From the NCBI GenBank assembly GCA_020721205.1, contig DYNF01000007.1:1241-65240 (forward strand): DNA of 64,000 nucleotides, read 5' to 3'. Made by a program: the position numbers and the translations under genes. This DNA is from Prochloron sp. SulCav_FS08_3_32_3330 (lineage in GTDB: Bacteria > Cyanobacteriota > Cyanobacteriia > Cyanobacteriales > DYNF01). The notes under the pieces were generated by a model. The model did no database searches. It saw only the letters and a program-made list of their open reading frames with translations, and had not been told where the DNA came from. Below are positions 4,962 to 59,753 of the stretch, piece after piece. Numbering within the stretch: the stretch's first letter is position 1; each line of letters begins with the position of its first letter.

Positions 4962-5022
4962 AAAGTTTGTAATAGGGCTTAAGCCCTACAAAGTTTGTAA
5001 TAGGGCTTAAGCCCTACTACGA
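4962..5022. repeat. Two tandem REP-like palindromic units (TAGGGCTTAAGCCCTAC)
   Basis: 'agtttgtaatagggcttaagccctac' occurs twice. The second copy ends '...ctactacgaac', like the dispersed REP-like family. Lies between ggt and the DUF92 gene and probably also terminates transcription. Confidence 0.7.
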
Positions 5023-8757: not shown

Positions 8758-8838
8758 TTATTTGTTATTAGTTATTAATGTTTACTGATTACTGATTATT
8801 GAATTTCTCCCACCTTATTTAATTTTGAACTTTGAATT

Positions 8839-13803: not shown

Positions 13804-13980
13804 TTAATCGTTCGTTGTTGTGCTTTAGCACCACCTTTTAGTGCTGAAGCGCAACAACGAGCCTTTTAGCGCTGAAGCGCAACAACGAGCCTTTTAGTGC
13901 TGAAGCGCAACAACGAGCCTTTTAGCGCTGAAGCGCAACAACGAGCCTGTAGCGCTGAAGCGCAACAACGAGCCTTTTAG
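13763..13980. repeat. REP-like repeat array: 2 forward units plus 5 inverted units in 28-bp tandem
   Basis: 'gttcgttgttgtgctttagcaccac' twice, then 'ccttttagYgctgaagcgcaacaacgag' five times with a 28-bp period. Overlaps the 3' ends of both convergent genes. Confidence 0.9.
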
Positions 13981-15455
13981 CTTAAGATCCAGTTAACTAA
14001 AGTCCGCACAGGATACCCCGTTGCCCCTTGATTATTAATCCCACTTTCTTTATCCGCCCACACTGGACCCGCAATATCTATATGCGCCCAAGGGGTTTTT
14101 TCGATAAATTGTTTTAAAAATAAAGCGGCGGTAATCGCCCCTCCTGAGCGACTTCCTGTGTTTTTCATATCGGCGATCGGGGATTTCATTAACTCAAAAT
14201 AGTTCTCTTTCAGAGGCATTTCCCACATTGGTTCACCAGAGGCTTCTGAGGCTTGTTTGAGTTCTTTAGTTAGGTTTTCATCCGTTGACCAGAAACCCGC
14301 AATATCATCCCCTAAAGCCACCACACAAGCCCCTGTTAAAGTAGCTAAATCTACGATCGCATCTAACTCTAATTTTTCCGTATAAACTAGAGCATCAGCG
14401 AGGGTTAAACGCCCTTCAGCGTCGGTGTTATTCACCTCGATCGTTTTACCATTGGAAGCCGTTAAAATATCCCCCGGACGCAAAGCACGACCACTGATCA
14501 TATTTTCCGTAACGGCGGAAATAAAATGTACTTCCACATCAGGTTTAAGTTGAGCGATCGCTTTTGCCGCACCGAAAGTCGCCCCAGCACCCCCCATATC
14601 TACTTTCATACTCTCAATCCCACTACCGCTAACTTTTAAGTTTAAACCGCCCGAATCAAAAGTTAAGCCTTTCCCGACGATCGCCACTTTACGGCGAGGA
14701 GTACCGGAAGGATTATAAATTAAATGAATAAATTTAGGAGGTAATTCAGAGGCTTTTGCCACTCCTAAAAAAGAACCCATCCCTAATTTTTCACAGTCTT
14801 CTTGTTCCAGAATTTCCAGTTTTAACCCGTAATTATGAGCTAATTCTTTGGCTGTTTCTGCCATTGTGACAGGAGTTAACACATTAGCCGGAGCATTAAC
14901 CAATTCTTTTGCTAAAATTACCCCTGAGCAAATTTGCTCCGTGCGAGTAATTACGGTTTCAATCGCACTAAAACCAAGTAAATCAACTGTTTCCAGTTTT
15001 AAATCTTGATCTTGAGGATCCGATTTAAAACGATTATCCTGATGGAGAGCGAGGATCAGTCCCTCAGCGATCGCTCCGGCTGAACCCTCTTTATCCTCAT
15101 TAAAGTTTGGTAATTGTAGGGCAAGAGTTTTAATTTTTTCCTTTTTAGCGATTCGGGCGATCGCCGCCCCAGTTTTACGCAGAGTATTTAAACTAAAATC
15201 AGAGGATTTGCCCAATCCCACAATCATAATTTTACGGATAGGGGTATTACTGCCCACACGAGTGAGACAGATACATCCTGTTTTCCCTTTACACTCTTTT
15301 TCCTGAATCAACTCAGAAATTGTCCCTAAAAGTTTTTGATCAAGTTGAGTCATTTCGTCATTGAGGGTAAGAATTTCCTCTCTTTCAAAAAAGCCCACTG
15401 CTAAAGCATCTCCAGTCCAGTCTAAAACTGATATTTCTTTGCCGTAAATTTTCAT
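13977..15455 (-). CDS. pepA: Leucyl aminopeptidase (M17)
   Basis: 492 aa; '[14 protein letters not shown]' and '[11 protein letters not shown]' M17 signatures. Confidence 0.9.
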
Positions 15456-29665: not shown

Positions 29666-29698
29666 AATTTTGAATTTTGAATTTTGAATTTTGAATTT
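29666..29698. repeat. Heptamer tandem repeat (ATTTTGA)n
   Basis: aattttgaattttgaattttgaattttgaattt. A similar tract lies at 8819-8848. Preceded by a 'gtcaggacttacgcaaaagtgcgtcattgcgac' motif. Confidence 0.8.
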
Positions 29699-29701
29699 GT
29701 T

Positions 29702-31048
29702 TTAACGACGGGGAAAACGACGACGTTGCAGAAAATCAGGAATATCTAAGCCACCATTTTTTTTCGGAGGATTTTCCACCGGAGGAATAGGCGCTGGAGG
29801 TAGATTTTGAGCGATCGGCGGAGGTGATGGATTTTGAGCGATCGGTGGGGGAGAAATCGTTTGATTTACGGGATTTTGACGTATAGGATTAGCCATTGCC
29901 ACTCTTGTGGGAGTAATAGAGGCTGTTTCCGGGGAAAAACCCGTAGCAATGACCGTAATTTTTATTTCTCCCTGCATTTTTTCATCAATCACAGCCCCAA
30001 AAATAATATTAGCATTAGGATCCACCACTTCATAAATAGTTTCGGCGGCAGTATTAACCTCATGTAAAGTTAAATCATGACCTCCCGTAATATTTAAAAC
30101 CACTCCTTTTGCCCCATCAATAGAAGCTTCTAATAAAGGAGACGAAATAGCCGCCACAGCCGCCTCTCTCGCACGAGATTTACCCGATCCGATCCCAATG
30201 CCCATTAAAGCGGATCCCGCATCAGCCATGACCGCTCTAACATCAGCAAAATCCACATTTACTAAGCCCGGAATCGTAATAATATCAGAAATGCCTTGAA
30301 CCCCTTGACGCAATATATCATCTGCTACTCGAAAAGCCTCTTGTACAGGAGTTTCAGCCGGAATTACCTGTAAAAGTTGATTATTAGGAATCACAATTAA
30401 AGTATCTACTTGACTTTGAAAAGCATTTATGCCATCTTCAGCTTGATTAGTGCGTCGTCGCCCTTCAAACGTAAAAGGACGGGTTACTACCCCCACCGTT
30501 AAACAGCCCATTTCCTTAGCGATTTCTGCCACAATGGGAGCGGCTCCCGTGCCAGTTCCTCCGCCCATTCCAGCAGTAATAAAGACTAAATCCGTATGTT
30601 CTAAAGCGTGGGCGATTTCATCTCTTGATTCTTCTGCCGCTTTTTGTCCGATCGCCGGATTACCTCCCGCCCCCAGCCCTCTCGTTAATTTTTGTCCAAT
30701 TTGCAGACGACGGGGGGCTTGGGATTGTGCTAAAGCTTGGGCATCGGTATTAATCGCCCAAAATTCAATCCCGCTTACACCACTGATGATCATGCGGTTG
30801 ACCCCATTACAGCCTCCACCACCAACACCAATCACTTTAATTCGTGCCAGAGTTGATGGGGTTATATTATCTTGACGAGACTCCTCTTTCGGAATATCTG
30901 AGGAACTATTAGAATCAGGATTATAGGGTAATCCTGAAGAATTAAAGGGGTGATGATTTTCCACTGTTTTTGATGATAATGATAAACTAGGGGATTCAGT
31001 CTGATTACTGGGAGAAGAATTTAATAATGATAATGAATTAGGTGTCAT
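29702..31048 (-). CDS. ftsZ: Cell division GTPase FtsZ
   Basis: 448 aa; '[13 protein letters not shown]', tubulin signature '[10 protein letters not shown]', 'NTDAQAL'; Pro-rich C-terminal linker and conserved '[10 protein letters not shown]' tail. Confidence 0.95.
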
Positions 31049-32809: not shown

Positions 32810-33763
32810 TTAATTTAAGTCATCTCTAAATTTTGTTAATAATTCTTCTCGACTCAGAGTAATTAATAAACGGGTTAAATCTTCTGTTGGTAATTGTAAC
32901 ATCAGAGGAATAATTGCTTTTAATTCTTGATCTAAATTTTGAAATCTTACTTTTAAAAGATTTTCAATTAATTCTCTTTTTGCCTTAAATTCCCCTTCAA
33001 TTATTCCCTCAAGTTTACCCTCAAGTTTACCCTCAAGTTTACCCTCAAGTTTACCCTCAAGTAGCCATTGTTCTCGATCTTGTAAATAAGCTGGTGATAA
33101 GTTCATAATGACCTCCTGATCATTTTTATTTTTATTATCTCTCAATTCTAAATTTTTGCGCCAATTTGCTAATAATTCGAGTAAATTAGTCTTTAAAGAA
33201 TCTTCTATTGGCAATGCAACTAATTCTTCAATTGCTATTTTTTGTGTTTTGCCCCTCCCTAATATTCTTAACCATAATGTGTTATTATTTACTGGTAATT
33301 GATGAATAACAATGATTGCCCCACAAAAAAAATCAGGGAAAAAATAAATTCCTTCCTCTCCTTTTTCTACTAATTTTGCACCAAAATTATTTAAAATTCT
33401 TTGAGAACAAGTTGGTGTTAATATCCATAAAAATGGAAATTTAATAGTTGATAAAAGGACTTTTTCTTGTTTTTTCGTTCTTAAAATATGCTCATGAATA
33501 CTATATAATTTAGCTAAACAACTTCTAATTTCTCTTTCCGTACAAGGATTGTGGAATGGTTCAATTAAACAGCTTGTTTTCGCTAGATTTTGTAATAAAC
33601 CAAGGGAATTAAGATTAGTTTGATTTTCAGAATTAGGCGTAAATATTAGGTCTATTTCTCGACGTTCACTAATAAGAGGATATCCTGTTTCTACTAAACC
33701 AAATGGTTTTAATAATTCTTCTAAATATGCCTTGGTAAATTCATCATGAAGTTGTCTTGTCAT
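32810..33763 (-). CDS. Rpn/YhgA-like PD-(D/E)XK family protein with DUF4351-like C-terminus and KLEG repeats
   Basis: 317 aa; N-terminal 'HDEFTKAYLEELL' pattern; C-terminal 'LLKVRFQNLDQELKAIIPLMLQLPTEDLTRLL' resembles DUF4351; (KLEG)x4 encoded by a 12-bp tandem repeat (cctcaagtttac) at about 33008-33062. Confidence 0.5.
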   Translation of the reverse strand: MTRQLHDEFTKAYLEELLKPFGLVETGYPLISERREIDLIFTPNSENQTNLNSLGLLQNLAKTSCLIEPFHNPCTEREIRSCLAKLYSIHEHILRTKKQEKVLLSTIKFPFLWILTPTCSQRILNNFGAKLVEKGEEGIYFFPDFFCGAIIVIHQLPVNNNTLWLRILGRGKTQKIAIEELVALPIEDSLKTNLLELLANWRKNLELRDNKNKNDQEVIMNLSPAYLQDREQWLLEGKLEGKLEGKLEGKLEGIIEGEFKAKRELIENLLKVRFQNLDQELKAIIPLMLQLPTEDLTRLLITLSREELLTKFRDDLN

Positions 33764-42251: not shown

Positions 42252-42453
42252 ACGGAGTTAATCGCTGATTTACGGGATGAGCCTGTGCCTACCACATCAC
42301 CGACATAAGCCACAGGATAGCCATTTTCTTTCAATTTAGCGATGGTTTCTAAGCCTTCGGGCATTTTTGATTCTAACATCGCTAAAGCGTGTAAGGGAAT
42401 GTCCGGGCGTGTGGTAGCGTGGGGTGCTGGAGATAAATCATCGGTATTGGTTT
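42252..42453 (-). pseudogene. Internal fragment of acnB (direct repeat of 50245-50446)
   Basis: 202 bp aligning colinearly with intact acnB, with 11 mismatches and no gaps by hand alignment. No flanking acnB sequence on either side. Confidence 0.85.
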
Positions 42454-44194: not shown

Positions 44195-45067
44195 TTATAA
44201 TATTAAATAACCCCTATCTAATCCTTGTTCTAATCCTTTTTCCCAATCAGATGTTAAATGTTTTCTAACTATTTCAAATAAATGAATAACAACATCATCA
44301 TAAATTGGATTCTTAACATAACTTTCAAGATAACGAAATTCTCGATCTGTATTTTTCTGTTTTCTTAATATATAAATTTGATCAACTTTGAATTTTTGTA
44401 AATTGATTGAACTGGTTAATTTAAGCCATTCAGCAACAATAATATAAATAGCATTAGGATTGCGTAACTTTAACTGTTCTGCTGCGGTCGAAGCACCCTC
44501 TAACATGGTTTTATCTAAATAGGTTTTACATTCAATTACCACTGCTGGTAGTTGAAACTGATAAGTTTCAATTTCTTCACTACCAATACAATTAAAATCG
44601 GCTTTAATATCTGTACCAATAACAAAATCATGATCCTTTGTTTCTAATCTTACGTTAGGTTTTGTTACCATTTCTTGATAAGAACTAGGACGGAAAAATA
44701 TATCTTTAAATGTGTTTGCTTTTCCTAATAAAGCAGATTGAGATATATCATAAACTAAATCTCTAAATAAGTAAAAAATAAATTCTTCTAACACTGAAGA
44801 ATGCAAATTTGAACGAGAATCAAATTTTTCAGCATATTTTTGTTGATCTAAAAAATTTTTATAGATATTAAGTAATTTAACTCTACGTTTGATAATTTTA
44901 GTATCCTGATCTGTTGATTGTGCAAAAGCTCCTCTTAATTTCTCATTAATTCTTCTCCATTGATCATATTGTATACGAATTTCTTGAAGAAATTGCCGAG
45001 ATTCAGGATCAGTATATTTAGTTTTGTGTAATTCTTTTTGTCTTAAATTATCACCATGAACATACAT
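44195..45067 (-). CDS. Type II restriction endonuclease (specificity unknown)
   Basis: 290-aa ORF 12 bp downstream of the m5C methyltransferase gene on the same strand. PD-(D/E)XK-like 'DFVIGTD ... VVIECK'. Confidence 0.55.
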   Translation of the reverse strand: MYVHGDNLRQKELHKTKYTDPESRQFLQEIRIQYDQWRRINEKLRGAFAQSTDQDTKIIKRRVKLLNIYKNFLDQQKYAEKFDSRSNLHSSVLEEFIFYLFRDLVYDISQSALLGKANTFKDIFFRPSSYQEMVTKPNVRLETKDHDFVIGTDIKADFNCIGSEEIETYQFQLPAVVIECKTYLDKTMLEGASTAAEQLKLRNPNAIYIIVAEWLKLTSSINLQKFKVDQIYILRKQKNTDREFRYLESYVKNPIYDDVVIHLFEIVRKHLTSDWEKGLEQGLDRGYLIL

Positions 45068-45079
45068 AATTAATACCTC

Positions 45080-46279
45080 TTAAATTGATATTTGTTGTAA
45101 TAAATTTTCAGCGATCGCTTTAGCTAATAAAGGAGGAACAGCATTACCAATTTGATTATATTGACATAGGTGTTTTTCATCAAATCTTCCTTCTCTTTGT
45201 AATAATTTTTGACTAACTACTGTGGGTTTACCTTTAAAAATATACCAATCTGGAAAAGATTGGATTCTAGCACCTTCTCTAGCGGTAAAATTTCTATGTT
45301 GATAGGGATGAACAAAGTTAGCATAAAAGGAAGCAGGTATAGTATGACATGGTTTATCGGGGTGCATTCTCCTACTATTTTGATCATAAATTTTATCGGA
45401 AATTATTCCTTGATTATTTCTTTTAAATGGTTTTAAATGTTGGGGAATATTGGCTAAAGAATCACCATGAGACATTAAAGAAAAACGCTCTACTGTACGT
45501 TTAGAATGTTTCATAGCCACATGATTATAAACCGTTGGCGAACCTAAACGCATTTGTATTTGATATTCGTGATCAGAAGGTTTTGTGTAATCCATTTCTT
45601 CTGCTCCTTCTCTAGCAGAAATTTCGGGTAAATCTGCGATCGCTTCCCATAATGTAGGACATTTTTTCAACATAGTTTTAAAAATTGGTAATACTTCTGA
45701 ATCAAGATAATGGGTAGGTTGAGGAAATGGTTGTTTCAAGGGATGAATTGAACCAATAATAAATAGTCTTTTTCTAATTTGAGGAATGCCATAATCTGTT
45801 GCTTCTAAAATATCGTAATATACATAATAGCCTAATTCTTGTAAATTTTGACAAATCAGATAAATAATTAATTGATTATCGTGATTTTTAGCTTTTAATA
45901 AGTTAGGTACATTTTCAATAATTAAATATTCGGGTTTAAATAATTTAATAATTCTAATAAATTGAAAAAATAAAGAATTACGATGATCATTTGGATCACC
46001 TGCATTTTTATTACAAATTGAAAAACCTTGACAGGGAAGACCACCTAAAATAATATTAGGTGATTGATGATTAAATGTTTCTATTAAATTATCATCAGTA
46101 ATATTTTCTATTTTATCAGTAATTACTGTTGCCATTGTATGATTATAAACAAAAGTTTCTGATGCCCACTTGTCTTGTTCAATAGCACCAATAATATCAC
46201 ATCCTGCTAGTTTAAAGCCTAAACTAAAGCCTCCTGCTCCGGCAAATATATCTAAAACTTTAAGGTTGTTATTGGTCAT
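45080..46279 (-). CDS. DNA (cytosine-5)-methyltransferase
   Basis: 399 aa; motif I 'DIFAGAGGFSLGF', IV 'GGLPCQGFS', VI 'ENVPNL', VIII 'QIRKRLFIIG', X 'GNAVPPLL'. Confidence 0.92.
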   Translation of the reverse strand: MTNNNLKVLDIFAGAGGFSLGFKLAGCDIIGAIEQDKWASETFVYNHTMATVITDKIENITDDNLIETFNHQSPNIILGGLPCQGFSICNKNAGDPNDHRNSLFFQFIRIIKLFKPEYLIIENVPNLLKAKNHDNQLIIYLICQNLQELGYYVYYDILEATDYGIPQIRKRLFIIGSIHPLKQPFPQPTHYLDSEVLPIFKTMLKKCPTLWEAIADLPEISAREGAEEMDYTKPSDHEYQIQMRLGSPTVYNHVAMKHSKRTVERFSLMSHGDSLANIPQHLKPFKRNNQGIISDKIYDQNSRRMHPDKPCHTIPASFYANFVHPYQHRNFTAREGARIQSFPDWYIFKGKPTVVSQKLLQREGRFDEKHLCQYNQIGNAVPPLLAKAIAENLLQQISI

Positions 46280-46354
46280 TATTTATCAATTAATATAGGG
46301 TTAATTTTTAGATGTTTACTGTTTAATAATATTATTATAAGGCAAAAATGAATA

Positions 46355-46790
46355 TATTTAGCAGCGATCGCACCCCAATCTCCCCTACAAAGCGATCGCA
46401 CCTTAAACTCCCCTAAAAAGCGATCGCACCCCAAACTCCCCCACAAAGCGATCGCACCCCAAACTTCCCCAAAGAGCGATCGCACCTTAAACTCCCCTAC
46501 AAAGCGATCGCACCTCAAACTCCCCAAAGAGCGATCGCACCCCAAACTTCCCCAAAGAGCGATCGCACCCCAAACTTCCCCAAAGAGCGATCGCACCCCA
46601 AACTTCCCCAAAGAGCGATCGCACCTCAAACTCCCCTAAAAAGCGATCGCATATCTAACTCCCCTCAAAAAGCGATCGCACCTCAAACTCCCCTAAAAAG
46701 CGATCGCACCACCAACTCCAACAACAAGCGATCGCATCCCAAACTCCCCTAACAAGCGATCACATCTCAATCTCTCCTTACAGGAGATAA
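46355..46790 (-). repeat. 28-bp HIP1-containing minisatellite, 15 units
   Basis: GCGATCGC at 46364, 46392, 46420, 46448, 46476, 46504, 46531, 46559, 46587, 46615, 46643, 46672, 46700 and 46728, plus a degenerate gcgatcac at 46756. Unit approximately AAAGCGATCGCACCYCAAACTYCCCYAA. No unique spacers. Confidence 0.95.
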
Positions 46791-46864
46791 ATTTATTAAA
46801 TGGTGTACTCAAGATTGCTCAAATTCAATAACGTAGACAAGAATTATAGCGTTTGCAATCTATT

Positions 46865-47887
46865 TTAGTAGAATAGCAAAGGTTTAATTCTTCTTTTTCG
46901 TTCATATAATTCTGTAATAAGCAATTCTTTATTATAATGAAATTGTCTAAGATATTCAATAAATAAATCAATAGTTGTTTCATATATAGTACCACCATTA
47001 AAATGAACATGAAAATCATCATGAATTTTATAAGTGATTGTAATTAAATTATCAATATTAGCAGCAAGATAAGGATAGTGAGATTCATCATATAAGTGAT
47101 GAACTCTTAAATTGACCTGATAACGATTATATTGATTTTTTTGAATACCAGTAACTTGACAAGTATTATTATCTCTTTTAAGAGCTTTTTCCTTCATATA
47201 ATTGATCAGATTTCTATCTGGTTGATGAGGGAGTGATTTAGTTCTTTGTTCTAAAATAGGAAGACCTATATTTAAAAATTCACTATAATAATTTTTTTGC
47301 TCTGGTATTGTTTTTGATAATTCTTGACTAAATTTAGCTAAACCAGAAAATGAATAATATCTTTGTGTTTCAATAGTACAAAAATCTTCATCAATAATTA
47401 AGCTATCTGGAGGACGAAACCTTCTTAATTTAAGAAAAAGTTGATCAAGCTGTTCTGATGTTGTTTGCAATATATTGATTGTATCAATTTTACTTAAAAA
47501 ATGACGATTATTTACTTTTGTCAGAGAAGTACAGTTTTGATTAATGACTTCTGTTACTTTATATCTTAATAATTGTTGTTCTTTTTTTGTTATTAATTGA
47601 TTAATAAAATTTTTATTTTTATCGCCAATCAGAGCTACAAAATCTTGAATTTCGGAATCAGAAATTAGACCTCTAGTATCAAGATAATTAGCGATGATAA
47701 AAGCACCTTGTTTTGAAAACAATTTTTCTTGATATGTCTTGTTACAAATTCTAAAATGATCATTTTCAGTCAATTTATTATTTGAAATAAGTTGTTTTAT
47801 TATTGCAGTTAATTGATCTCTTTGTATATATAGAGATTTTGCAATTTCTTCTTCATCAAATAAAAAAGTTGTATTATCAATATACAT
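46865..47887 (-). CDS. HNH-endonuclease-domain protein with unassigned N-terminal region
   Basis: 340 aa; C-terminal 'CQVTGIQ...LRVHHLYDESHYPYLAANIDNLITITYKIHDDFH' HNH motif. GGAGG lies 11 nt upstream of the ATG, inside the end of the J-domain gene. Confidence 0.7.
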   Translation of the reverse strand: MYIDNTTFLFDEEEIAKSLYIQRDQLTAIIKQLISNNKLTENDHFRICNKTYQEKLFSKQGAFIIANYLDTRGLISDSEIQDFVALIGDKNKNFINQLITKKEQQLLRYKVTEVINQNCTSLTKVNNRHFLSKIDTINILQTTSEQLDQLFLKLRRFRPPDSLIIDEDFCTIETQRYYSFSGLAKFSQELSKTIPEQKNYYSEFLNIGLPILEQRTKSLPHQPDRNLINYMKEKALKRDNNTCQVTGIQKNQYNRYQVNLRVHHLYDESHYPYLAANIDNLITITYKIHDDFHVHFNGGTIYETTIDLFIEYLRQFHYNKELLITELYERKRRIKPLLFY

Positions 47888-47893
47888 TATTGA

Positions 47894-48310
47894 TTAAGCC
47901 TCCGCAGTAATAGTTCTATACATTTGATTGATTCTATTAAAAATTTTAGAATCACCAGTTTCTATGACATCAGGATGGTAAATTTTGCTTAATCTATAGT
48001 AAGCTGTCTTTATGTCTTGATCCGTAGCAGTATCAGGATTTAATTCAAATACTGTCCAAGGATCAAAATAATCAAATATATTAATTCCATTAATACAACC
48101 ATAACCATTCTGATTTTCTTCAGAAGGAAGAACACCTACAAATTTACGATATAATAGTTCCCACGTTTTTTTATATCGAAAATCTAATTTGTCCATGCCA
48201 TCAATTGAAAGTTTAAATAAACCAGATTTCTTTAATTCTGATGTATTTTTAACATTGAATTTAATATAAACTTTTTCTTTTAGTTTTTTAATTGTTAAAG
48301 TTGATCTCAT
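47894..48310 (-). CDS. Small J-domain (DnaJ-like) protein
   Basis: C-terminal 'DQDIKTAYYRLSKIYHPDVIETGDSKIFNRINQMYRTI' with the HPD tripeptide. Likely start is Met33 of the track ORF (48310), because the longer ORF overlaps the acnB 3' end. The N-terminal ~85 aa are unassigned. Confidence 0.75.
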   Translation of the reverse strand: MRSTLTIKKLKEKVYIKFNVKNTSELKKSGLFKLSIDGMDKLDFRYKKTWELLYRKFVGVLPSEENQNGYGCINGINIFDYFDPWTVFELNPDTATDQDIKTAYYRLSKIYHPDVIETGDSKIFNRINQMYRTITAEA

Positions 48311-48386
48311 TTCATACTCAATACTATGTAAAAGATTACTTATTATAAGGTGAGTCCTAAAATTAAGACCCACCCTAAAAATTATA

Positions 48387-50975
48387 CTACACCAAAACAT
48401 CCTCAAACTTAGGCATTTTCTCCACAGGAATTACCCGCCCGAAATCCTCAAAACCCGCAATCTCATCAAAATTGAGATAACGGTATAAATCACCCTTAAA
48501 CGGGTCAACTTTTTGAGCCACAATACTCATATATTCCTCAACAGTAGGAATCTTACCTAATAACGCACATACCGCCGCCAACTCCGCACTACCGAGATAC
48601 ACCCTTGCACCCTTACCCATGCGATTATTAAAATTACGGGTAGAAGTAGAGAAAACAGTAGCATTATCCTCAACTCTTGCCTGATTTCCCATACAGAGGG
48701 AACATCCGGGCATTTCTGTCCTTGCACCCGAAGCTACAAAGATATCATAAACCCCTTCCTCTTGTAACATTTGTTCATCCATGCGGGTGGGTGGACATAT
48801 CCATAAACGCCCTTTAACCGTACCTGCACCCTCAAGAATCTTAGCCGCAGCCCGATAATGTCCGATATTGGTCATACATGAACCAATAAACACCTCATCT
48901 ACCTTGTCTCCGGCACATTCGCTCATTAATTTTACATTATCAGGGTCATTGGGTGCGGCGACAATGGGTTCTTTTATCTCACTTAAGTTTACCTCAATGG
49001 TATCCACATATTCTGCATCCGCATCGGCAGACATTAAACTCGGATTTTGCAACCATGCTTCCATTTTGGCAATACGGCGTAACAAGGTACGAGCATCTTG
49101 ATATCCCCTTGCGATCATATTTTTCATTAAGACGATATTAGAACGCAAGTATTCCGCTACAGTCTCCTCACTGAGTTTAATGGTACTACCAGAACAACTA
49201 CGCTCTGCTGTAGCATCGGTTAATTCAAAAGCCTGTTCTACCTTTAAATCGGGTAATCCTTCCATTTCCATAATGCGACCATTGAAAACATTGATTTTGT
49301 TCTCTTTGCCGTAGGTAAGTTTACCCTGTTGCATGGCTACCCAGGGAATAGCGTTAACGATATCTCGTAATGTTACCCCTGGTTGTAATTCCCCTGTAAA
49401 CTTGACTAAGACCGATTCTGGCATATCTAAAGGCATTACCCCTAAAGCCGCCGCAAAAGCGACTAAACCTGAACCTGCGGGAAATGATATTCCTAAAGGG
49501 AAACGGGTATGAGAGTCGCCCCCTGTACCCACTGTATCGGGTAATAACATCCGATTTAACCAAGAGTGAATGATACCATCTCCCGGACGTAAAGCCACTC
49601 CCCCTCTCGTTGAGAAAAAGTCGGGTAATGATTTGTGGGTTTTGATGTCAACGGGTTTGGGGTAAGCGGCGGTATGACAGAAGGTTTGTAAGGTTAAATC
49701 AGCATTGAAACCTAAACAGGCTAACTCTTTTAACTCGTCTCTGGTCATAGGTCCTGTGGTATCCTGAGAGCCTACGGTGGTCATTATCGGTTCGCAGGAT
49801 GTACCCGGACGAATACCAGTAACTCCACAGGCTTTACCTACCATTTTCTGAGCTAACGTATAGCCTTTACCCGTGTCTTCTGGAGGTATAGGACGTACAA
49901 ATAGGGTAGAAGTCTCTAATCCTAAAGCATGACGGGCTTTATCGGTTAAGGTGCGTCCAATTAAAAGAGGAATACGTCCACCCGCACGAACTTCATCTAA
50001 AATCGTATCGGGTTTGAGGGTAAAGGTGGTAATGGTTTCGCCGTTTTGATTGGTAATCTTACCCAGATAGGGGTGTATTGTGATTACATCACCCGTATTC
50101 AGTTGAGTTACATCGCATTCTATGGGTAATGCGCCTGAATCTTCGGCAGTATTAAAGAAAATGGGAGCGATTTTCCCCCCTAGAATGTAACCACCTGCCC
50201 GTTTATTGGGTACAAAGGGAATATCGTTACCAATATGCCATAATACGGAGTTAATCGCTGATTTACGGGATGAGCCTGTGCCTACCACATCACCGACATA
50301 AGCCACAGGATAGCCGTTTTCTTTCAATTTGGCGATGGTTTCTATGCCTTCGGGCATTTTTGACTCTAACATCGCTAAGGCGTGTAAGGGTATATCGGGG
50401 CGGGTGGTGGCGTGGGGTGCTGGGGATAAATCATCGGTATTGGTTTCCCCTGGCACTTTAAACACGGTGACGGTGATTTCTTTGGCAACTTTCGGTTTAC
50501 TGATAAACCATGCACCGTTAGCCCAAGCATCCATCACCTGTTTAGCGTAGGGGTTGGTATCGCATCCATGCAATACATCGTTAAACGCATCAAAGACTAA
50601 CAGGGTTTTACTTAGTGCGATCGCTGCTTCTGAAGCAATATTACTATCTTGAGACTTGAGCAGTTCGATCAGGGATTGCACATTATAGCCTCCCATCATT
50701 GTACCGAGTAAGTCCACCGCACCTTGAGGACTGATCAAAGGACATTTAATTTCACCTTTAGCAACACCTGTTAAAAATCCGGCTTTGACGTAGGCGGCTT
50801 CGTCAACTCCGGGGGGTATGCGATCCCTGAGTAACATCATCAGGGTTTCGGCTTCGCCTTCGGGGGGATTTTTCAGTAACTCGCACAGTTGGGAGGTTTG
50901 TTCGGCATTGAGGGGTAAGGGGGGAATGCCTAATTTTGCCCGTTCTTCGGCGTGTTTCCGGTATTCTTGTAACAT
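48387..50975 (-). CDS. acnB: Aconitate hydratase B (bifunctional aconitase 2 / 2-methylisocitrate dehydratase)
   Basis: 862 aa; N-terminal '[22 protein letters not shown]', typical of AcnB; Fe-S ligand regions 'IGSCMTN' and '[12 protein letters not shown]'. Confidence 0.93.
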
Positions 50976-51765: not shown

Positions 51766-52629
51766 ATGGCTTGGTCAAGAGGCTATAGATTAAATAATGG
51801 TAAATATACCATTAGTCAAGTATTAGGTGAAGGTGGTTTTGGAATTAGCTATCTTGCTACAGATTATCAGGGAAAAAATGTGGTAATTAAAACTTGTAAT
51901 GATAGTGTTAGACGAGAGCCAAATTTTGCGAAATTTCAACAAGATTTTGTCAATGAAGCTCTTAGACTAAGAGGATGTCAGCATCCTCATATTGTTCAAG
52001 TTTATGAGTTAATTCAAGAAGGTTCATTGTGGTGTATGGTTATGGAGTATATATCAGGTAAAAGTTTGTGGGATTCAGTTAAAAGTTCTGGATATTTAAC
52101 AGAAGGAGAAGCGTTAATAAATATTCAGTTTATTGGAGAAGCCCTTAAAGTTGTGCATCGAAATGGTTTATTACATCGAGATTTAAACCCTAAAAATATT
52201 ATGATAGACCGATTATTTGGAGCAACATTAATTGATTTTGGTTTAGCTCGTGAATTTGTCACTAATCGAACTAAAACTCATACGGTAGCTGCTTTTCCTG
52301 GATTTGCTCCTATTGAACAGTATGGTACAAGAAATAAACGAGGAGCTTATACTGATGTTTATGGTTTAGCCGCCTCATCCTACTACGCTTTAACAGGTCA
52401 AATTCCTACATCTGCTCCTGATCGAGTTTCAGGAATTAGATTAGAGTCACCACAATGGTTAAATCCACAGATTAGTAATCGGATCAATCAAGCTATTTTA
52501 GATGGTATGGAATTATATCCAGAAAATCGTCCTCAATCAGTGCAGGAATGGTTAAATGGTTTGACAAACAGTCCTCCTCCGGTTGATTTTAAGCAATTTG
52601 CAAATCTCGTTGATCCTCAAGGGTTTTAG
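51766..52629 (+). CDS. Stand-alone Hanks-type Ser/Thr protein kinase (catalytic domain only)
   Basis: AAGGAGG lies 8 nt upstream of the ATG at 51766. 'GEGGFGISYLA' G-loop, 'VVIKT', 'HRDLNPKNIM', 'DFGLA', 'APIEQ'. No sensor or repeat domain. Confidence 0.85.
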   Translation: MAWSRGYRLNNGKYTISQVLGEGGFGISYLATDYQGKNVVIKTCNDSVRREPNFAKFQQDFVNEALRLRGCQHPHIVQVYELIQEGSLWCMVMEYISGKSLWDSVKSSGYLTEGEALINIQFIGEALKVVHRNGLLHRDLNPKNIMIDRLFGATLIDFGLAREFVTNRTKTHTVAAFPGFAPIEQYGTRNKRGAYTDVYGLAASSYYALTGQIPTSAPDRVSGIRLESPQWLNPQISNRINQAILDGMELYPENRPQSVQEWLNGLTNSPPPVDFKQFANLVDPQGF

Positions 52630-52772
52630 AGGAGTTTTGAGGTGCGATCGCTTTGGTAAGGGAGTTTTGAGGTGCGATCGCTTTTTAAGGGAGTTTGAAG
52701 TGCGATCGCTCTTTAGGGTAGTTTGAGGTGCGATCGCTTTTAGTGGTAGTTTGGGGTGCGATCGCTTTTAAG
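52630..52772 (+). repeat. Cluster of 5 units of the 28-bp HIP1 repeat (GGGAGTTTGAGGTGCGATCGCTTTT)
   Basis: HIP1 at 52644, 52674, 52702, 52730 and 52758. Starts at the kinase stop codon. Reverse-complement orientation relative to the 46.3-46.8 kb array. Confidence 0.9.
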
Positions 52773-52835
52773 GACAAATCAGTAATTATAGATTATGATT
52801 ATAATAGTTTATTGTTAATTTTGAGGAATTTACTA

Positions 52836-53111
52836 ATGATTACAGTTAATCAAAATCTAAATAATAATGACCTTTTAGCATTAGTTAAAAAAGTCGAAAC
52901 TGAAGGCGAAAGAATCATTATTGAAACGGAAAATAAAGGAAAAGTCGCTATTATTAATTATGCAGATTTGCAACAATTAGAAGATGCTAGAGATTGTGCA
53001 GAATTACGTCAAGCTATAGCAGAAAGTAGTGGTGAATTTTATACACTTGATCAAGTTTTAGCTGAAAGAGGTTTAACTTTAGAAGATATTATGAGTGAGG
53101 AAGATGAGTAA
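52836..53111 (+). CDS. Phd/YefM-like antitoxin
   Basis: In-frame ATG at 52836 (MITVNQNL...). The upstream part of the track ORF is repeat-encoded. 'GKVAIINYADLQQLEDARD' resembles a Phd/YefM core. Confidence 0.55.
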   Translation: MITVNQNLNNNDLLALVKKVETEGERIIIETENKGKVAIINYADLQQLEDARDCAELRQAIAESSGEFYTLDQVLAERGLTLEDIMSEEDE

Positions 53112-53373
53112 AGTATATTTATTATTGGTGGAGAAATCAGTTTTAAAAACTTTAAATGATCTTCCTCTTAAGCAGTATAAGCAAGTGACAATGAAATTAT
53201 TTTCACTGCAAAGAAATCCTTTTCCTCAAGATTCTAAAAAGTTAAAAGGTTTTGAGGACAGTTATCGAGTAGATCAAGGTGAATATCGAATTTTATACAC
53301 GGTTGAGGATGATAAAATTAGGGTGTTTAAAACTGGTAAACGTAATGATGATGAAGTTTATCAAAATTTGTAA
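53095..53373 (+). CDS. RelE/ParE-family toxin
   Basis: 92 aa, overlaps the antitoxin stop; 'SYRVDQGEYRILYTVEDDKIRVFKTGKR'. Confidence 0.7.
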   Translation: MRKMSKVYLLLVEKSVLKTLNDLPLKQYKQVTMKLFSLQRNPFPQDSKKLKGFEDSYRVDQGEYRILYTVEDDKIRVFKTGKRNDDEVYQNL

Positions 53374-53382: not shown

Positions 53383-53453
53383 GGTGTGATCTCTTTTAAG
53401 CGGAGTTTAAAGGGTGATCGCTTTGTGGGAGTTAGCGGTGCGATCGCTTTTTA
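53383..53453 (+). repeat. About 3 degenerate units of the 28-bp repeat
   Basis: tggtgtgatctcttttaag / cggagtttaaagggtgatcgctttgt / gggagttagcggtgcgatcgcttttta. Confidence 0.7.
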
Positions 53454-53857: not shown

Positions 53858-54130
53858 ATGACAGCAACAAATATCATGTTATCCCTAGAACAAGCCCAAG
53901 TAGAGAATAATTGGCAATTTACAGAGGTTTGGATTGATCCGATGTTAACACCTCCTTATCTACTTTTATTATTAGTTGATAGTGAAGGAAAATGTCATAT
54001 TTATGATCCTGCTAAAGATTATCAAGTAATATTTTCTAGTAATGATTATGAAACAGCTAAATTATGGTTATTAGAGGATGAATATGAACCAATTGAGGGT
54101 AGATTATCTTTAGATGAATTGCTTGTTTGA
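53858..54130 (+). CDS. Hypothetical 90-aa acidic protein (immunity/antitoxin-like, unassigned)
   Basis: ORF 16 nt downstream of 53572-53841. Acidic ('LLEDEYEPIEGRLSLDELL'). No motif recognised. Confidence 0.35.
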   Translation: MTATNIMLSLEQAQVENNWQFTEVWIDPMLTPPYLLLLLVDSEGKCHIYDPAKDYQVIFSSNDYETAKLWLLEDEYEPIEGRLSLDELLV

Positions 54131-54243
54131 AGGGTGGTTTGAGGTGCGATCTCTTTGATGGGGGTTTAAGGCGCGATCTCTTTTGTAAGGGAGTTAGTGA
54201 TGAGATCGCTTGTTGGGGAGTTTAAGATGCGATCTCTTTTAAC
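54131..54243 (+). repeat. 4 units of the 28-bp repeat (gcgatctc variant)
   Basis: gggtggtttgaggtgcgatctc / ggggtttaaggcgcgatctc / gggagttagtgatgagatcgc / gggagtttaagatgcgatctc. Confidence 0.8.
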
Positions 54244-54306
54244 CACAAATTGGTAATTATAGATTATGATCGCATTAGTTCATTCTTGATATTGAGGAAA
54301 TTACTA

Positions 54307-54597
54307 ATGATTACAGTTAATCAAAATCTAAATAATAATGACCTTTTAGCATTAGTTAAAAAAGTCGAAACTGAAGGCGAAAGAATCATTATTGAAACGG
54401 AAAATAAGGGAAAAGTAGCTCTTATTAATTATCAAGATTTACAATTGTTAGAAGATTTAGAAGATGCTAGAGATTGTGCTGAATTACGTCAAGCAATAGA
54501 AGAAAGTAAGGGGCAACCTAGTATTACCTTTAATGAGTTATTAGACGAATTAGGTTTAACAATTGAAGATTTAACATCTGGAGATGAAAATGAGTAA
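54307..54597 (+). CDS. Phd/YefM-like antitoxin (paralog of 52836-53111)
   Basis: The first ~40 codons are identical at the protein level to 52836-53111. The C-terminus diverges, with an extra 'LEDLED'. Confidence 0.55.
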   Translation: MITVNQNLNNNDLLALVKKVETEGERIIIETENKGKVALINYQDLQLLEDLEDARDCAELRQAIEESKGQPSITFNELLDELGLTIEDLTSGDENE

Positions 54598-54859
54598 AGA
54601 ATATTCTTTAATTATTGAACATTCGGCTAGAAAAAGTTTAAAAAATCTTCAACCCAAATTTATAAAACAGATTGTTTTTAAGATATTTACTTTACAAGAT
54701 AATCCTTTTCCTCAAGACTCTACAAAATTAAAGGGTTTTGAGGACAGTTATCGAGTAGATCAAGGTGAATATCGTATTTTATATACCGTTGAGGATGATA
54801 AAATTAGGGTATTTAAAATTGGTAAACGTAATGATGACGAAGTTTATCAAAATTTATAA
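54584..54859 (+). CDS. RelE/ParE-family toxin (paralog of 53095-53373)
   Basis: The C-terminal ~45 aa are nearly identical to 53095-53373 ('NPFPQDS.KLKGFEDSYRVDQGEYRILYTVEDDKIRVFK.GKRNDDEVYQNL'). The N-terminal third diverges. Confidence 0.7.
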   Translation: MKMSKEYSLIIEHSARKSLKNLQPKFIKQIVFKIFTLQDNPFPQDSTKLKGFEDSYRVDQGEYRILYTVEDDKIRVFKIGKRNDDEVYQNL

Positions 54860-54861
54860 GT

Positions 54862-54948
54862 AGGGTAGTTTGGGATGCGATCTCTTTTTGAAGGGAGATT
54901 GAGGTGCGATCTCTTGTTAGGTGGATTGAGGTGCGATCTCTTTTAATG
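54862..54948 (+). repeat. 3 units of the 28-bp repeat (gcgatctc variant)
   Basis: gggtagtttgggatgcgatctc / gggagattgaggtgcgatctc / gtggattgaggtgcgatctc. Confidence 0.8.
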
Positions 54949-55025
54949 ATAATTGCTATTATTGATAGCTTGTTGTTATAATCAAATTGATCGCTTTTTA
55001 TTAAAGTATCAAGGAAAATAAACTT

Positions 55026-56651: not shown

Positions 56652-56748
56652 ATGCGATCGCTTGGTAGGGGAGTTGGTGGTGCGATCGCTCTTTGGTGGA
56701 GTTTGAGGTGCGATCGCTTGGTAGGGGAGTTGGTGGTGCGATCATTTA
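56652..56748 (+). repeat. 4 units of the 28-bp HIP1 repeat
   Basis: ctatgcgatcgc / ggggagttggtggtgcgatcgc / ggtggagtttgaggtgcgatcgc / ggggagttggtggtgcgatca. The last two overlap the 5' end of the BrnT ORF. Confidence 0.85.
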
Positions 56749-57210: not shown

Positions 57211-57260
57211 TATGATCGCTTGTTTGGGAGATTGGAGTGTGATCGCTTTTAATAATATTG
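57211..57260 (+). repeat. 2 degenerate units of the 28-bp repeat (right edge of the TA island)
   Basis: ttatgatcgcttgtt / tgggagattggagtgtgatcgctttta. Confidence 0.6.
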
Positions 57261-57391: not shown

Positions 57392-58123
57392 ATGAAAATT
57401 CATCAATTGCAAAGAATTGTGATTAAGCCTGAACAAATACAGGAAAATAAGATTATTTTTACCTCGGATCAAGAGCATTATATTTATCGAGTTTTACGGT
57501 TAAAAGAAGGGAATCAAATTATTGTGATGGATGGCAAAGAAAAAGCATGGTTAGTCAATATTGAAAAAGAATCTAATCTAATTGTAAAACCTTTTGTCCA
57601 AAAAACTGAATTACCTGTTAATATTACTTTAATTTGTGCTTTACCAAAGGGTAATAATTTTGAGGAAATTGTGCGCTGTTGTACGGAGTTAGGTGTTAAT
57701 TCTATTATACCTGTAATTAGTGCAAGAACTTTACTTAAACCCGGTGAAAATAAAGTACAAAGATGGCGTAAAATTGCTTTAGAATCTGCTGAACAATCGG
57801 AACGTCAATTAGTTCCTAGTATAACGGATCCTTTACCTTTTGTTGATATTTTTAAGCACATAAATTTAGATCATAGTAATAATTATATTTGTGTGGCAAG
57901 GGGGGAAAATCCTCATTTGTTATCCTCTTTACAAAAGCAATCTTCACAAGATATCATAATTATGACAGGTACAGAAGGAGGCTGGACTGATTCAGAAATT
58001 GACACAGCAATTAAATTAAATTTTCAACCTATTTCCCTCGGAAAACGTATTTTAAGGGCTGTTACTGCACCGATTATGGCTTTATCCTTAATTTCTAGTT
58101 ATTATGAAATAAAAAAAATTTAG
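57392..58123 (+). CDS. rsmE: 16S rRNA (uracil1498-N3)-methyltransferase
   Basis: 243 aa; 'HYIYRVLRLKEGNQI' PUA-like N-terminus, 'KWRKIALESAEQSER', 'GTEGGW...E'. Confidence 0.85.
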   Translation: MKIHQLQRIVIKPEQIQENKIIFTSDQEHYIYRVLRLKEGNQIIVMDGKEKAWLVNIEKESNLIVKPFVQKTELPVNITLICALPKGNNFEEIVRCCTELGVNSIIPVISARTLLKPGENKVQRWRKIALESAEQSERQLVPSITDPLPFVDIFKHINLDHSNNYICVARGENPHLLSSLQKQSSQDIIIMTGTEGGWTDSEIDTAIKLNFQPISLGKRILRAVTAPIMALSLISSYYEIKKI

Positions 58124-59421: not shown

Positions 59422-59621
59422 CCCTACGCCGAAAAGTGTTTTCATTCTTTTTTTTCAACGGGTTAAAACCCGTTGCTACCCAAACAAAACCCGTCTTTAC
59501 GGGTTTTCTAATTAAATATTAACTAATATTAAAAAAATTCAACCTGCGTATGCCTGTTTTGCTTATGTAGCAACGGGTTTCAACCTGTTGCTTTTTGGAG
59601 AATGAAAACACCCTACGCCGG
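59422..59621 (+). mobile_element. Four-hairpin MITE copy 5 (degenerate), inserted inside a REP-like cluster
   Basis: Terminal repeats gtgttttcattc / gaatgaaaacac; 'cctacgccg' on both sides (59422-59430, 59612-59620). Hairpin 3 is broken (cctgcgtatgcctg). Confidence 0.8.
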
Positions 59622-59702
59622 AAAGGGCTGAAGCCCAACAACAAACCGGAAAGGGCTGAAGCCCAACTACAAACCGGAAAGGGCTGAAGCCCAACTACAA
59701 AC
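59619..59702. repeat. 3 tandem 28-bp REP-like units (ccggaaagggctgaagcccaacWacaaa)
   Basis: Three consecutive units. They form an inverted pair with ggttcgttgttgggctttagccctac at 59402-59427. Confidence 0.85.
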
Positions 59703-59753
59703 CTGATTATTTTTCTCTTAAAATTGTTTTAATTAATAACAAATAACGAATAA

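Follow-up and report, generated by a model that had tools for sequence, protein, structure and literature searches.

The locus and its tandem array

The DNA analyzed, hereafter the window, is a 64-kb stretch of a Cyanobacterium-like genome with a GC content of 33%. On its minus strand lie the two genes of a restriction-modification (R-M) module and, separated from them by a tandem repeat array and an AT-rich spacer, the gene of a 340-aa protein:

44195..45067, minus strand: restriction endonuclease of the Bpu10I/BbvCI family, 290 aa (PF09549, E=5.4e-30; BbvCI R2, 6eg7_A, E=6.7e-32)
45080..46279, minus strand: m5C DNA methyltransferase, 399 aa (PF00145, E=1.6e-66; PADLOC MTase_II match)
46280..46362, minus strand: AT-rich spacer of 83 nt that separates the array from the methyltransferase ATG (sequence; comparison of upstream regions)
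46363..46782, minus strand: 15-unit tandem array of a 28-bp repeat, with 14 exact HIP1 sites and one degenerate unit
46865..47887, minus strand: protein of 340 aa carrying an HNH-like motif in its C-terminal part; this module adjoins the array on the side away from the R-M genes (weak evidence only)

The flanking open reading frames, both on the minus strand, were found at the positions given in an earlier note on this DNA, and the PF00145 match agrees with its assignment of the methyltransferase. Its designation of the 340-aa product as an HNH protein is plausible and weakly supported: the protein had no match in Pfam, it contains the HNH-like motif RDNNTCQVTG...VHHLYDESHYPYLAANIDNLITITYKIHDDFH, and its match to the HNH region of IscB is weak (E=0.02). 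The stop codon of this gene occupies 46865-46867, the low-coordinate end of a gene read from the minus strand, which leaves a gap of 585 nt to the methyltransferase gene. The array, with approximately 420 nt, fills about 72% of this gap, hence most of it, as had been claimed.

The array consists of 14 exact copies of the octamer GCGATCGC at 46364-46735 and a 15th, degenerate unit, GCGATCAC at 46756, which is situated at the end facing the HNH-like gene. The spacings of the octamer (28x5, 27, 28x4, 29, 28x2) and the output of Tandem Repeats Finder (a single array at 46363-46761, period 28, 14.2 copies, 87% matches, score 523) confirm the count of the earlier note, namely 14 recurrences at a 28-bp spacing, with one of 27 and one of 29, plus a degenerate unit. 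The modal base at each position yields the unit TTTTTAGGGGAGTTTGGGGT-GCGATCGC, the G-rich strand of which is the minus strand. All units are direct and head-to-tail. Units 7-9 are identical to each other, whereas the units closest to the HNH-like gene are the most degenerate, such that the array decays at its edges. As a head-to-tail series of copies of a unit between 10 and 100 bp in length, the array has the structure of a minisatellite. Its octamer is HIP1, defined by sequence and strong over-representation: the window contains 50 HIP1 sites, 14 of them within the array, compared with 0.12 expected from dinucleotide shuffles. A 116-aa open reading frame that runs across the array (46279-46629, minus strand) is not considered a gene, since its product is a repetitive, low-complexity read-through of the unit in three frames.

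The 83-nt spacer contains a perfect TATAAT (46339..46334, minus strand) and the motif AACAGTAAACAT (46323..46312), which was found again upstream of three orthologous methyltransferase genes. A consensus promoter scan of the minus strand from the array to the ATG revealed neither a full -35/-10 pair nor a convincing sigma-70 pair, and a terminator scan of the minus strand found no terminator. Judged from its sequence, the spacer is likely to comprise the promoter and leader of the R-M genes.

The array and the restriction-modification genes

The earlier note had raised the possibility that the R-M pair recognizes a site embedded in HIP1, in which case the 14 sites upstream of the methyltransferase gene might act as a methylation-sensitive regulator or as a decoy. 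The arrangement would suit such a role, with the last array unit ending 83 nt from the methyltransferase ATG and approximately 23 nt upstream of the TATAAT. Moreover, orphan methyltransferases in cyanobacteria are known to form m5C in CGATCG (PMC4390886; bioRxiv 10.64898/2026.06.24.733823). The specificity predicted for the R-M pair nonetheless argues against the proposal. The endonuclease belongs to the Bpu10I/BbvCI-type family, which includes Bsu36I (CCTNAGG), BlpI (GCTNAGC) and Bpu10I (PMC6326814), and its recognition site is therefore predicted to be of the GCTNAGC or CCTNAGG type. In 134.5 kb of DNA from seven carriers of the R-M pair, these two sequences are the most depleted of the xxTNAxx palindromes. 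CTNAG does not occur in the 15-unit array, which is therefore devoid of the recognition site predicted by homology.

The orthologues of the module likewise speak against regulation by the array, which is absent from all of the orthologous modules compared. Five cyanobacterial pairs of methyltransferase and endonuclease genes (71-90% identity) have no array and upstream gaps of only 35-71 nt. The same two genes, also without an array, are found with 64% identity in Bacillus, a non-HIP1 organism, and the module is present in further non-cyanobacterial phyla. In the closest relative, Cyanobacterium sp. T60_A2020_053, the methyltransferase of which falls into the same 90%-identity cluster as that of the window, homology extends from 46295 to 44195, with a DNA identity of 90% vs. 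78% for acnB; it thus begins just 16 nt before the methyltransferase ATG. In addition, related arrays in the window (see below) flank toxin-antitoxin (TA) cassettes that do not include a methyltransferase. Recognition of a HIP1-embedded site by the R-M pair is not borne out by these data, and a role of the array as regulator or decoy is left without support. The comparison largely refutes this reading, to which we assign very little probability, and the sequences do not support the array as a built-in control element of its neighbors. The array probably lies upstream of the methyltransferase gene because the R-M module is one exchangeable cassette, and not because of regulation; an effect on R-M expression, if any, would be a local side-effect.

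A repeat of variable copy number beside a DNA methyltransferase gene is also reminiscent of phasevarions. The repeats of phasevarions are 1-7 nt long and are located inside the open reading frame or between the -35 and -10 regions. The HIP1 minisatellite, by contrast, has a 28-bp unit, is positioned upstream of the likely promoter and is missing from the orthologous modules. The size and position of the repeat rule it out as a switch of the phasevarion type.

Sister arrays and variation in unit number

At a threshold of at most three mismatches, the window contains 27 matches to the unit: 14 on the minus strand, in the 15-unit array, and 13 on the plus strand, at 52.6-57.3 kb; 100 shuffled sequences yielded none. 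An nhmmer profile of the units reached E values below 0.01 at the same two places only. The unit is therefore, as the earlier note had stated, the reverse complement of the repeats that accompany the TA cassettes in that region:

52624..52773, plus strand: sister array 1, approximately 5 units, starting at the stop codon of a kinase gene, upstream of a Phd/ParE cassette
53414..53447, plus strand: sister array 2, 2 units, between the Phd/ParE and DUF6972 cassettes
54126..54239, plus strand: sister array 3, 4 units, with the HIP1 variant GCGATCTC
54861..54955, plus strand: sister array 4, 3 units, with the GCGATCTC variant, directly behind the ParE stop codon (54859)
56653..56743, plus strand: sister array 5, 3 units; the NCBI MAG assembly lacks two units (56 bp) here
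57221..57246, plus strand: one degenerate unit that closes the cassette region and is closely followed by the core gene rsmE (57392-58123)

TA-type genes dominate between these arrays as well. The derived variant GCGATCTC is common to the two arrays that flank the cassette at 54250-54859 and occurs in no other array. The core genes that adjoin the cassette region of the window are acnB and rsmE. At 42.4-46.3 kb, cassettes abut without any array; since many cassettes of the same islands adjoin each other in this way, arrays are not required.

The number of units differs between related sequences. At orthologous junctions of other species, counts of 2 vs. 6, 3 vs. 12, 3 vs. 13 and 5 vs. 8 were obtained. 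The 15-unit array has 15 units in the window and one assembly but 14 where N's occupy exactly the affected units, a difference between short-read assemblies that may be an artefact of collapse. Sister array 5 shows a clean difference of 56 bp between two otherwise 100% identical assemblies, which were also built from short reads and may likewise have suffered collapse. Together with the three identical consecutive units of the 15-unit array, the difference in the sister array and the differing counts at orthologous junctions support the view, already expressed in the earlier note, that the array is prone to slippage.

A family of HIP1-anchored repeats in cyanobacteria

A profile made from the units of the window alone proved too narrow, as nhmmer found only 7 loci elsewhere with it, and was replaced by a rule that combines HIP1 spacing with spacer composition. 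Among 185,579 species genomes, 64 loci contain three exact HIP1 sites at 28-bp spacing, a search rule that biases the sample. GT-rich arrays of the type seen in the window are present at 36 of the 64 loci, in Nostocales, Pseudanabaena and Coleofasciculus; arrays reach 18 units, as in Dolichospermum, and further examples are those of Cronbergia (13 units) and Anabaena azotica (12 units). The unit is composed of HIP1 and a GT-rich, nearly C-free spacer of approximately 20 nt, with a modal length of 28 bp. The consensus of the spacer is TTTTTGGGGGTTGGGGGAGT in the other genomes vs. TTTTTAGGGGAGTTTGGGGT in the window; its C content is 0-5% per position in the former (0% at most positions), and in the window units C occurs at one position only (35%). 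From the Cyanobacterium-like genome to Nostocales and Pseudanabaena, the same design is retained: a T-run, two G-tracts, almost no C and a final GT. The array thus belongs to a cyanobacterium-wide family of HIP1-anchored tandem repeats.

A metagenome scan with the pattern AGTTTRRGGTGCGATCGC returned 67 single matches, with a 3-unit array of the same type on only one small contig, and a viral scan for the repeat pattern returned one match. BLAST of the array against plasmids gave no match, a result that masking of the query by the low-complexity filter may account for. The literature search yielded neither a named 28-bp HIP1 tandem repeat nor a link of such a repeat to TA cassettes.

Arrays at the junctions of cassettes

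Throughout the family, the arrays are located at the junctions of cassettes, which encode type II TA pairs, nucleases or, in the case described here, a two-gene R-M module, in variable islands beside core genes; in other genomes, the conserved flanking core genes include chlH and pntAB. The arrays alternate with cassettes of approximately 0.7 kb in which PIN, ParE, Phd, ParD, MazF and HicAB genes predominate. Among 150 open reading frames of at most 260 aa within 1 kb of arrays, the most frequent Pfam families, in raw counts, were PIN (10), ParE (8), Phd (7), ParD (5) and Uma2 (4), followed by PemK, HicA and DUF433 (3 each) and HicB (2). Open reading frames far from arrays lie in the same islands and hence offer no independent control for these counts. 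The neighbors of long arrays are heterogeneous (MrcB-HNH, NucS-like, PIN_12, Uma2, NACHT and YhcG proteins), and no recombinase or nuclease common to the arrays was found among them. In 24 of the 25 loci with several arrays, all arrays have one orientation.

The same islands differ in content from genome to genome. Cassettes of 0.6-0.85 kb with 85-95% identity are found beside differing neighbors, and homology stops inside the arrays; the breakpoints of synteny thus fall within the repeats. Breaks of this kind could instead reflect the build-up of arrays in non-essential junction DNA.

A possible role of the arrays at the level of the transcript was considered, in which they would act as insulators or terminators and stop read-through, either by the pairing of neighboring HIP1 copies in 8-bp GC stems that precede a U-run or by G-quadruplexes. 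Several features of the window are compatible with it: each HIP1 is followed on the G-rich strand by T4-5, arrays begin at stop codons, and the HNH-like gene, the methyltransferase and endonuclease genes and four plus-strand TA cassettes all have the G-rich strand as their sense strand. There are also 19 tracts of at least four G and, if loops as long as 16 nt are allowed, 12 motifs of the G4 type, and the fold energy of -168.5 kcal/mol is lower than that of shuffled sequences (-133.5 +/- 10.7). Yet no G4 motif remains when loops are limited to 7 nt, HIP1 stems would have to close over loops of 20 nt, and the terminator scan of the minus strand was blank. Above all, the G-rich strand has no consistent relation to the abutting gene across the 36 loci, being sense or antisense about equally often (33 vs. 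33 upstream, 27 vs. 39 downstream). A terminator or G-quadruplex function was rejected because array orientation is independent of the genes, and the insulator reading as a whole appears improbable.

Comparison with other short repeats

Like CRISPR arrays and the ToxI repeats of type III TA systems, the units are regular, short direct repeats near defense genes. The statement of the earlier note that the array is not a CRISPR proved correct: the units abut without unique spacers, the 20 nt between HIP1 sites are themselves repeated, and Pfam and PADLOC identified no cas genes at 42-60 kb. A ToxI-like RNA antitoxin would also be a tandem repeat directly upstream of a defense operon, in a region rich in TA genes. 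However, the genes downstream of the arrays encode the PF00145 methyltransferase and PF09549 endonuclease or type II antitoxins, and no ToxN-family or AbiQ-type endoribonuclease gene follows any array examined. Rfam gave no match at gathering scores in the whole window and none up to E = 1 at 46200-46900, and the orientation of the arrays is independent of the genes, so that the probability of a type III system is close to nil. REP and BIME sequences differ as well: the units are all direct and do not alternate, and no Y1 transposase was present among the window genes scanned.

The closest likeness in the cyanobacterial literature is SDR5, a HIP1-associated small dispersed repeat (Elhai et al. 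2008, Genome Res 18:1484, as cited in PMC4390886 and PMC5861425). SDR5 and the array family are both very short cyanobacterial repeats tied to GCGATCGC, non-coding, abundant and with no known enzyme. In these citing accounts, SDR5 is described as a 21-nt dispersed insertion inside HIP1 that is confined to Nostocaceae. The array unit, unlike SDR5 as described, measures 28 bp, carries an intact HIP1, is repeated head-to-tail up to 15-18 times, occupies cassette junctions and occurs in a Cyanobacterium-like genome. The arrays could nevertheless have arisen from a tiny mobile element of the SDR5 type that repeatedly inserted into the HIP1 of an existing copy. According to PMC4390886, SDR5 of heterocystous cyanobacteria is inserted precisely between nucleotides 3 and 4 of HIP1, and each array unit does regenerate a HIP1. 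Insertion into a palindrome, however, should produce both orientations, yet the arrays are strictly head-to-tail; identical adjacent units are better explained by slippage, and 21 nt match neither the 20-nt spacer nor the 28-bp period. With SDR5 reported only from Nostocaceae in the accounts cited, such an origin is highly unlikely.

Possible recombination at the arrays

The arrangement of the islands resembles that of chromosomal integrons, such as the Vibrio superintegron with its TA cassettes and attC/VCR sites, in which each attC is a single imperfect palindrome of 57-141 bp. Common to both are a variable region beside core genes, small cassettes with many TA pairs, one repeated separator in a single orientation, and a cassette content that varies between relatives. 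In contrast to the attC hairpins, the separators here are tandem 28-bp units in which the only palindrome is 8 bp long; furthermore, the cassettes occur in both orientations with their own upstream regions, and some neighbors lack a separator. An IntI-type integrase was not detected among the window genes at 42-60 kb, the 150 flanking open reading frames or the larger neighbors of the arrays. A second resemblance, in sequence features, is to GT-rich recombinogenic minisatellites and Chi hotspots, with which the arrays share the GT strand asymmetry, the instability of copy number and the breakpoints within the repeats, but from which they differ in being anchored on a methylated palindrome. A Chi-like action of HIP1 has been proposed, and methylated HIP1 increases natural transformation and recombination (bioRxiv 10.1101/2024.09.10.611283). 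HIP1 abundance correlates with DNA-uptake genes, according to a further report (bioRxiv 10.64898/2026.06.24.733823).

We favor, with a probability of roughly 60%, an interpretation in which the array, a junction minisatellite prone to slippage, provides a substrate of homologous recombination for the exchange of cassettes. According to this model, arrays would lengthen or shorten through slippage during replication or through unequal crossing-over, and in the single-stranded state neighboring HIP1 palindromes could pair. Given a length of 60-500 bp, direct repetition, GT-richness and a high density of HIP1, the arrays would form landing pads for homologous recombination, through which cassettes might be excised, inserted or swapped, also after natural transformation. 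Since no recombinase is associated with the arrays, the model leans on general recombination of the RecA type.

Alternatively, the arrays may be functionless by-products, that is, neutral or mildly selfish minisatellites that arise by slippage in any HIP1-rich junction DNA free of constraint, accumulate in accessory islands solely owing to the weaker counter-selection there, and play no part in exchange. Freely varying unit numbers, degraded array edges, the missing enzyme, a strand unrelated to the genes and cassettes that abut without arrays would all be expected of such sequences. Drift alone does not easily account for the conservation of the spacer design and the 28-bp mode across lineages, and the uniform orientation within loci, the derived variant GCGATCTC in both arrays around one cassette and the location of synteny breakpoints within arrays also argue against a mere by-product, which we regard as rather unlikely, though worth serious consideration.

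Significance

The function of HIP1 has been debated for about 30 years, and recent work points to natural transformation and recombination. A conserved HIP1-anchored minisatellite at the breakpoints of exchangeable TA, nuclease and R-M modules provides a natural test system for such a role; the repeat family spans at least two distant lineages of cyanobacteria. Should the arrays indeed be recombination pads, they would correspond in function to the integron attC sites while requiring no integrase of their own, and they could be of use in cyanobacterial engineering as neutral sites for high-efficiency integration.

A more far-reaching proposal, which we put forward tentatively and consider doubtful as yet, is that HIP1-anchored 28-bp minisatellites constitute an integrase-free system of cassette capture across cyanobacteria. 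Arrays adjoining core genes would serve as landing pads, into which circular or transformed DNA consisting of a TA or defense module and a few units might integrate by RecA-type recombination, with the densely methylated HIP1 sites possibly acting as uptake or Chi-like signals. If this were true, it would explain the clustering of addiction and defense modules in uniformly oriented arrays, and HIP1 would acquire a definite function in horizontal gene transfer that can be put to the test.

The main array and its flanking genes

The 15-unit, 28-bp HIP1 tandem repeat at 46363-46782 (the main array) lies between the gene of an HNH-like protein and a restriction-modification (R-M) module of two genes:

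46865-47887, minus strand, 340-aa HNH-like protein (motif seen by eye; weak match to the IscB HNH region)
45080-46279, minus strand, m5C methyltransferase (PF00145)
44195-45067, minus strand, Bpu10I-family endonuclease (PF09549)

Tandem Repeats Finder located the array where the earlier note had placed it, with a period of 28, 14.2 copies and 87% matches over 46363-46761. The exact sequence GCGATCGC occurs 14 times, at spacings of 28 (five times), 27, 28 (four times), 29 and 28 bp (twice), and a degenerate fifteenth unit, GCGATCAC, is located at 46756. The majority base at each position of the minus strand gives the unit as TTTTTAGGGGAGTTTGGGGT-GCGATCGC. Units 7-9 are identical to one another, and degeneracy is highest beside the HNH-like gene. 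The window, with a GC content of 33%, contains 50 HIP1 sites, compared with 0.12 expected from shuffles.

No Pfam family was found for the 340-aa HNH-like protein, which is the sole member of its own 90%-identity cluster. Its gene is preceded by that of a 170-aa protein with a C-terminal DnaJ domain (47894-48406); the pair sits between acnB and the main array and is missing at the syntenic locus of a related species.

The main-array unit recurs in opposite orientation, as previously claimed, in six short arrays (1-5 units) between the toxin-antitoxin (TA) cassettes at 52.6-57.3 kb, and nowhere else in the window. Six of the seven units of the arrays at 54126-54239 and 54861-54955, which flank a Phd/ParE cassette (54250-54859), carry the variant GCGATCTC, which is absent from all other arrays. 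This derived, non-palindromic HIP1 variant has lost the CGATCG methylation site and kept GATC. Its presence on both sides would be expected from a cassette insertion that split one array, or from joint movement of the cassette and its flanks. The paralogous Phd/ParE cassettes at 52658-53373 and 54130-54859 are 80.6% identical over 737 bp, a similarity that takes in the upstream array and stops at the ParE stop codon.

Relation of the array to the R-M module

The methyltransferase shares its 90%-identity cluster with one from Cyanobacterium sp. T60_A2020_053, and the source organism is Cyanobacterium-like. In T60_A2020_053 (locus L074) the two R-M genes are likewise downstream of acnB, with a different upstream neighbour, a 61-nt gap and no array. 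DNA homology between window positions 44195-46295 and L074 7985-10085 is confined to a stretch that begins 16 nt ahead of the ATG and closes with the stop codon of the endonuclease gene. As the R-M module is 90% identical to its counterpart and the adjacent core gene acnB only 78%, the comparison indicates that the module was exchanged horizontally, and recently, into this same neighbourhood of the chromosome. T60_A2020_053 has one HIP1 site in a 17-kb stretch, versus 50 in the 64 kb of the window. Four further orthologous gene pairs (71-88% identity) occur in unrelated contexts with upstream gaps of 35-71 nt and no array. Homologues at 62-66% identity are found in Bacillus, Bacteroidales, Ignavibacteriales and others, that of Bacillus forming the same two-gene module. 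Judged by these comparisons, the main array is not part of the R-M system.

The endonuclease matches subunit R2 of BbvCI (E=6.7e-32). In 134.5 kb from seven carriers of the module, GCTNAGC occurs once and CCTNAGG twice, each against 11.9 expected; all other xxTNAxx palindromes, of 16 in total, are less depleted than these two. The main array contains no CTNAG, and the predicted recognition site, of the type GCTNAGC or CCTNAGG, is unrelated to HIP1. The earlier note had suggested that the R-M pair might read a HIP1-embedded site, of which the array would place 14 in the pair's own promoter region; given the array-free orthologous modules and the predicted site, this idea is unsupported. A local, incidental effect on R-M expression is conceivable: from the end of the array it is 83 nt to the ATG and about 23 nt to a perfect TATAAT, just downstream of which AACAGTAAACAT is common to three orthologous leaders.

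The window strongly avoids several palindromes, with GGCC found once (49 expected), CCWGG five times (33) and GGWCC five times (33), a pattern suggesting that the lineage has further R-M systems. CGATCG (76 versus 5.4 expected) and GATC (361 versus 197) are over-represented.

A repeat family in cyanobacteria

A pattern of three HIP1 sites spaced exactly 28 bp apart was searched for in 185,579 species, each represented by a single genome. The scan yielded 64 loci, the window's own species not being among them, and 36 of these carry arrays of the same design: HIP1, a T-run, two G-tracts, almost no C and a GT end. Most of the 36 belong to Nostocales (Dolichospermum, Anabaena, Cronbergia, Aphanizomenon, Nostoc, Tolypothrix and others); the others include Pseudanabaena and Coleofasciculus. 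Units of 28 bp are the commonest (146 of 326) within a range of 25-31, the spacer consensus reads TTTTTGGGGGTTGGGGGAGT in the family versus TTTTTAGGGGAGTTTGGGGT in the window, and the longest arrays have 18, 13, 12 and 12 units when one HIP1 mismatch is allowed. The densest example, a Cronbergia sp. UHCC 0137 locus (L010 13-3954), has seven arrays in 4 kb (8, 12, 9, 3, 8, 4 and 3 units) in one orientation, separated by cassettes of about 0.7-0.8 kb that include a Uma2 gene.

Between the family arrays lie small ORFs in pairs. In a set of 150 ORFs no longer than 260 aa and at most 1 kb from an array, raw Pfam counts were highest for PIN (10), ParE (8), Phd (7), ParD (5) and Uma2 (4), followed by PemK/MazF, HicA and DUF433 (3 each) and HicB and DUF5615 (2 each); BrnT, XisH, XisI and DUF6972 occurred once each. 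Larger neighbours are also of defence type (MrcB_N-HNH, NucS-like, PIN_12, NACHT/AAA, YhcG, T5orf172), and the conserved bordering genes are core genes: acnB and rsmE in the window, chlH and pntAB elsewhere. No recombinase was found among the small and larger neighbours, at 42-60 kb of the window or at the other loci.

Of 25 loci with more than one array, 24 have all their arrays in a single orientation. On either side the arrays come right up to stop codons, and they stay away from start codons. The strand of the G-rich array sequence bears no consistent relation to that of the neighbouring genes, which favours an element acting in DNA over one acting in the transcript. At least one test spoke against each of the other roles considered: terminator or G-quadruplex, SDR5-type nano-transposon, type III antitoxin and R-M regulator.

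Copy number and proposed cassette exchange

Cassettes of 0.6-0.85 kb recur across genomes at 85-95% identity with differing neighbours, and the homology stops inside the arrays. The match of L016 3475-4250 to L019 3147-3910, two loci with arrays of the family, is the only unique similarity between them. At orthologous cassette-array junctions, unit numbers are 2 versus 6, 3 versus 12, 3 versus 13, 5 versus 8 and 6 versus 4. Within the window's own lineage, the array at 56653-56743 is shorter by exactly two units (56 bp) in an NCBI MAG, the other 10.2 kb being 100% identical, and a JGI contig has 14 rather than 15 units in the main array, with N's at the affected units; each of these differences could be genuine or could stem from collapse during assembly.

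The arrays would grow and shrink through slippage or unequal crossing-over. The main rival explanation is that they are functionless products of slippage, piling up in unconstrained junction DNA. In the proposed mechanism, they would instead serve as substrates of homologous recombination, allowing the gain, loss and reshuffling of cassettes. In a single-stranded array the HIP1 copies might pair together; the predicted fold energy of the main array is -168.5 kcal/mol, compared with -133.5 +/- 10.7 for shuffles. Methylated HIP1 reportedly has a Chi-like effect, raising both recombination and natural transformation (bioRxiv 10.1101/2024.09.10.611283), and a second preprint reports that HIP1 abundance co-varies with DNA-uptake genes (bioRxiv 10.64898/2026.06.24.733823). 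Both fit the reading of the arrays as recombination substrates.

Other repeats and the acnB region

A 202-bp internal acnB fragment (42252-42453; 94.6% identity to 50245-50446, same strand) lies across the R-M/TA island from the intact gene, and at the T60_A2020_053 locus a fragment of the acnB 3' end (L074 10985-11114) is likewise beyond the R-M island. Downstream of acnB there appears to be a hot spot of repeated insertion with acnB fragments at its borders.

Three other tandem arrays of 28-bp period, unrelated in sequence to the main array, occur in the window (13834-13981, between two convergent genes; 59618-59703; 4962-5017), the units of each having their own small hairpin: GCGC-TGAA-GCGC, GGGC-TGAA-GCCC or the palindrome TAGGGCTTAAGCCCTA. 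Further repeats (29796-29845, 8660-8847, 29666-29698, 33006-33062 and 2990-3105) include a G-rich 27-bp repeat (x2) with the core GAGCGATCGG, heptamer (STRR-like) runs, a perfect 12-bp repeat (x4.8; CCCTCAAGTTTA) and a 53-bp repeat (x2.2).

Relation to known elements

The array was rated as a bacterial intergenic minisatellite or HIP1-associated repeat. By description, the closest entity is the 21-nt small dispersed repeat SDR5 in its association with HIP1, reported only from Nostocaceae (PMC4390886; PMC5861425). The literature search reached no paper on the tandem 28-bp organisation, the occurrence outside Nostocaceae or the association with cassettes. The layout of the islands resembles that of integron cassette arrays, whose defining features, IntI and attC, they lack. 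The family-level pattern provides a concrete handle on the function of HIP1.
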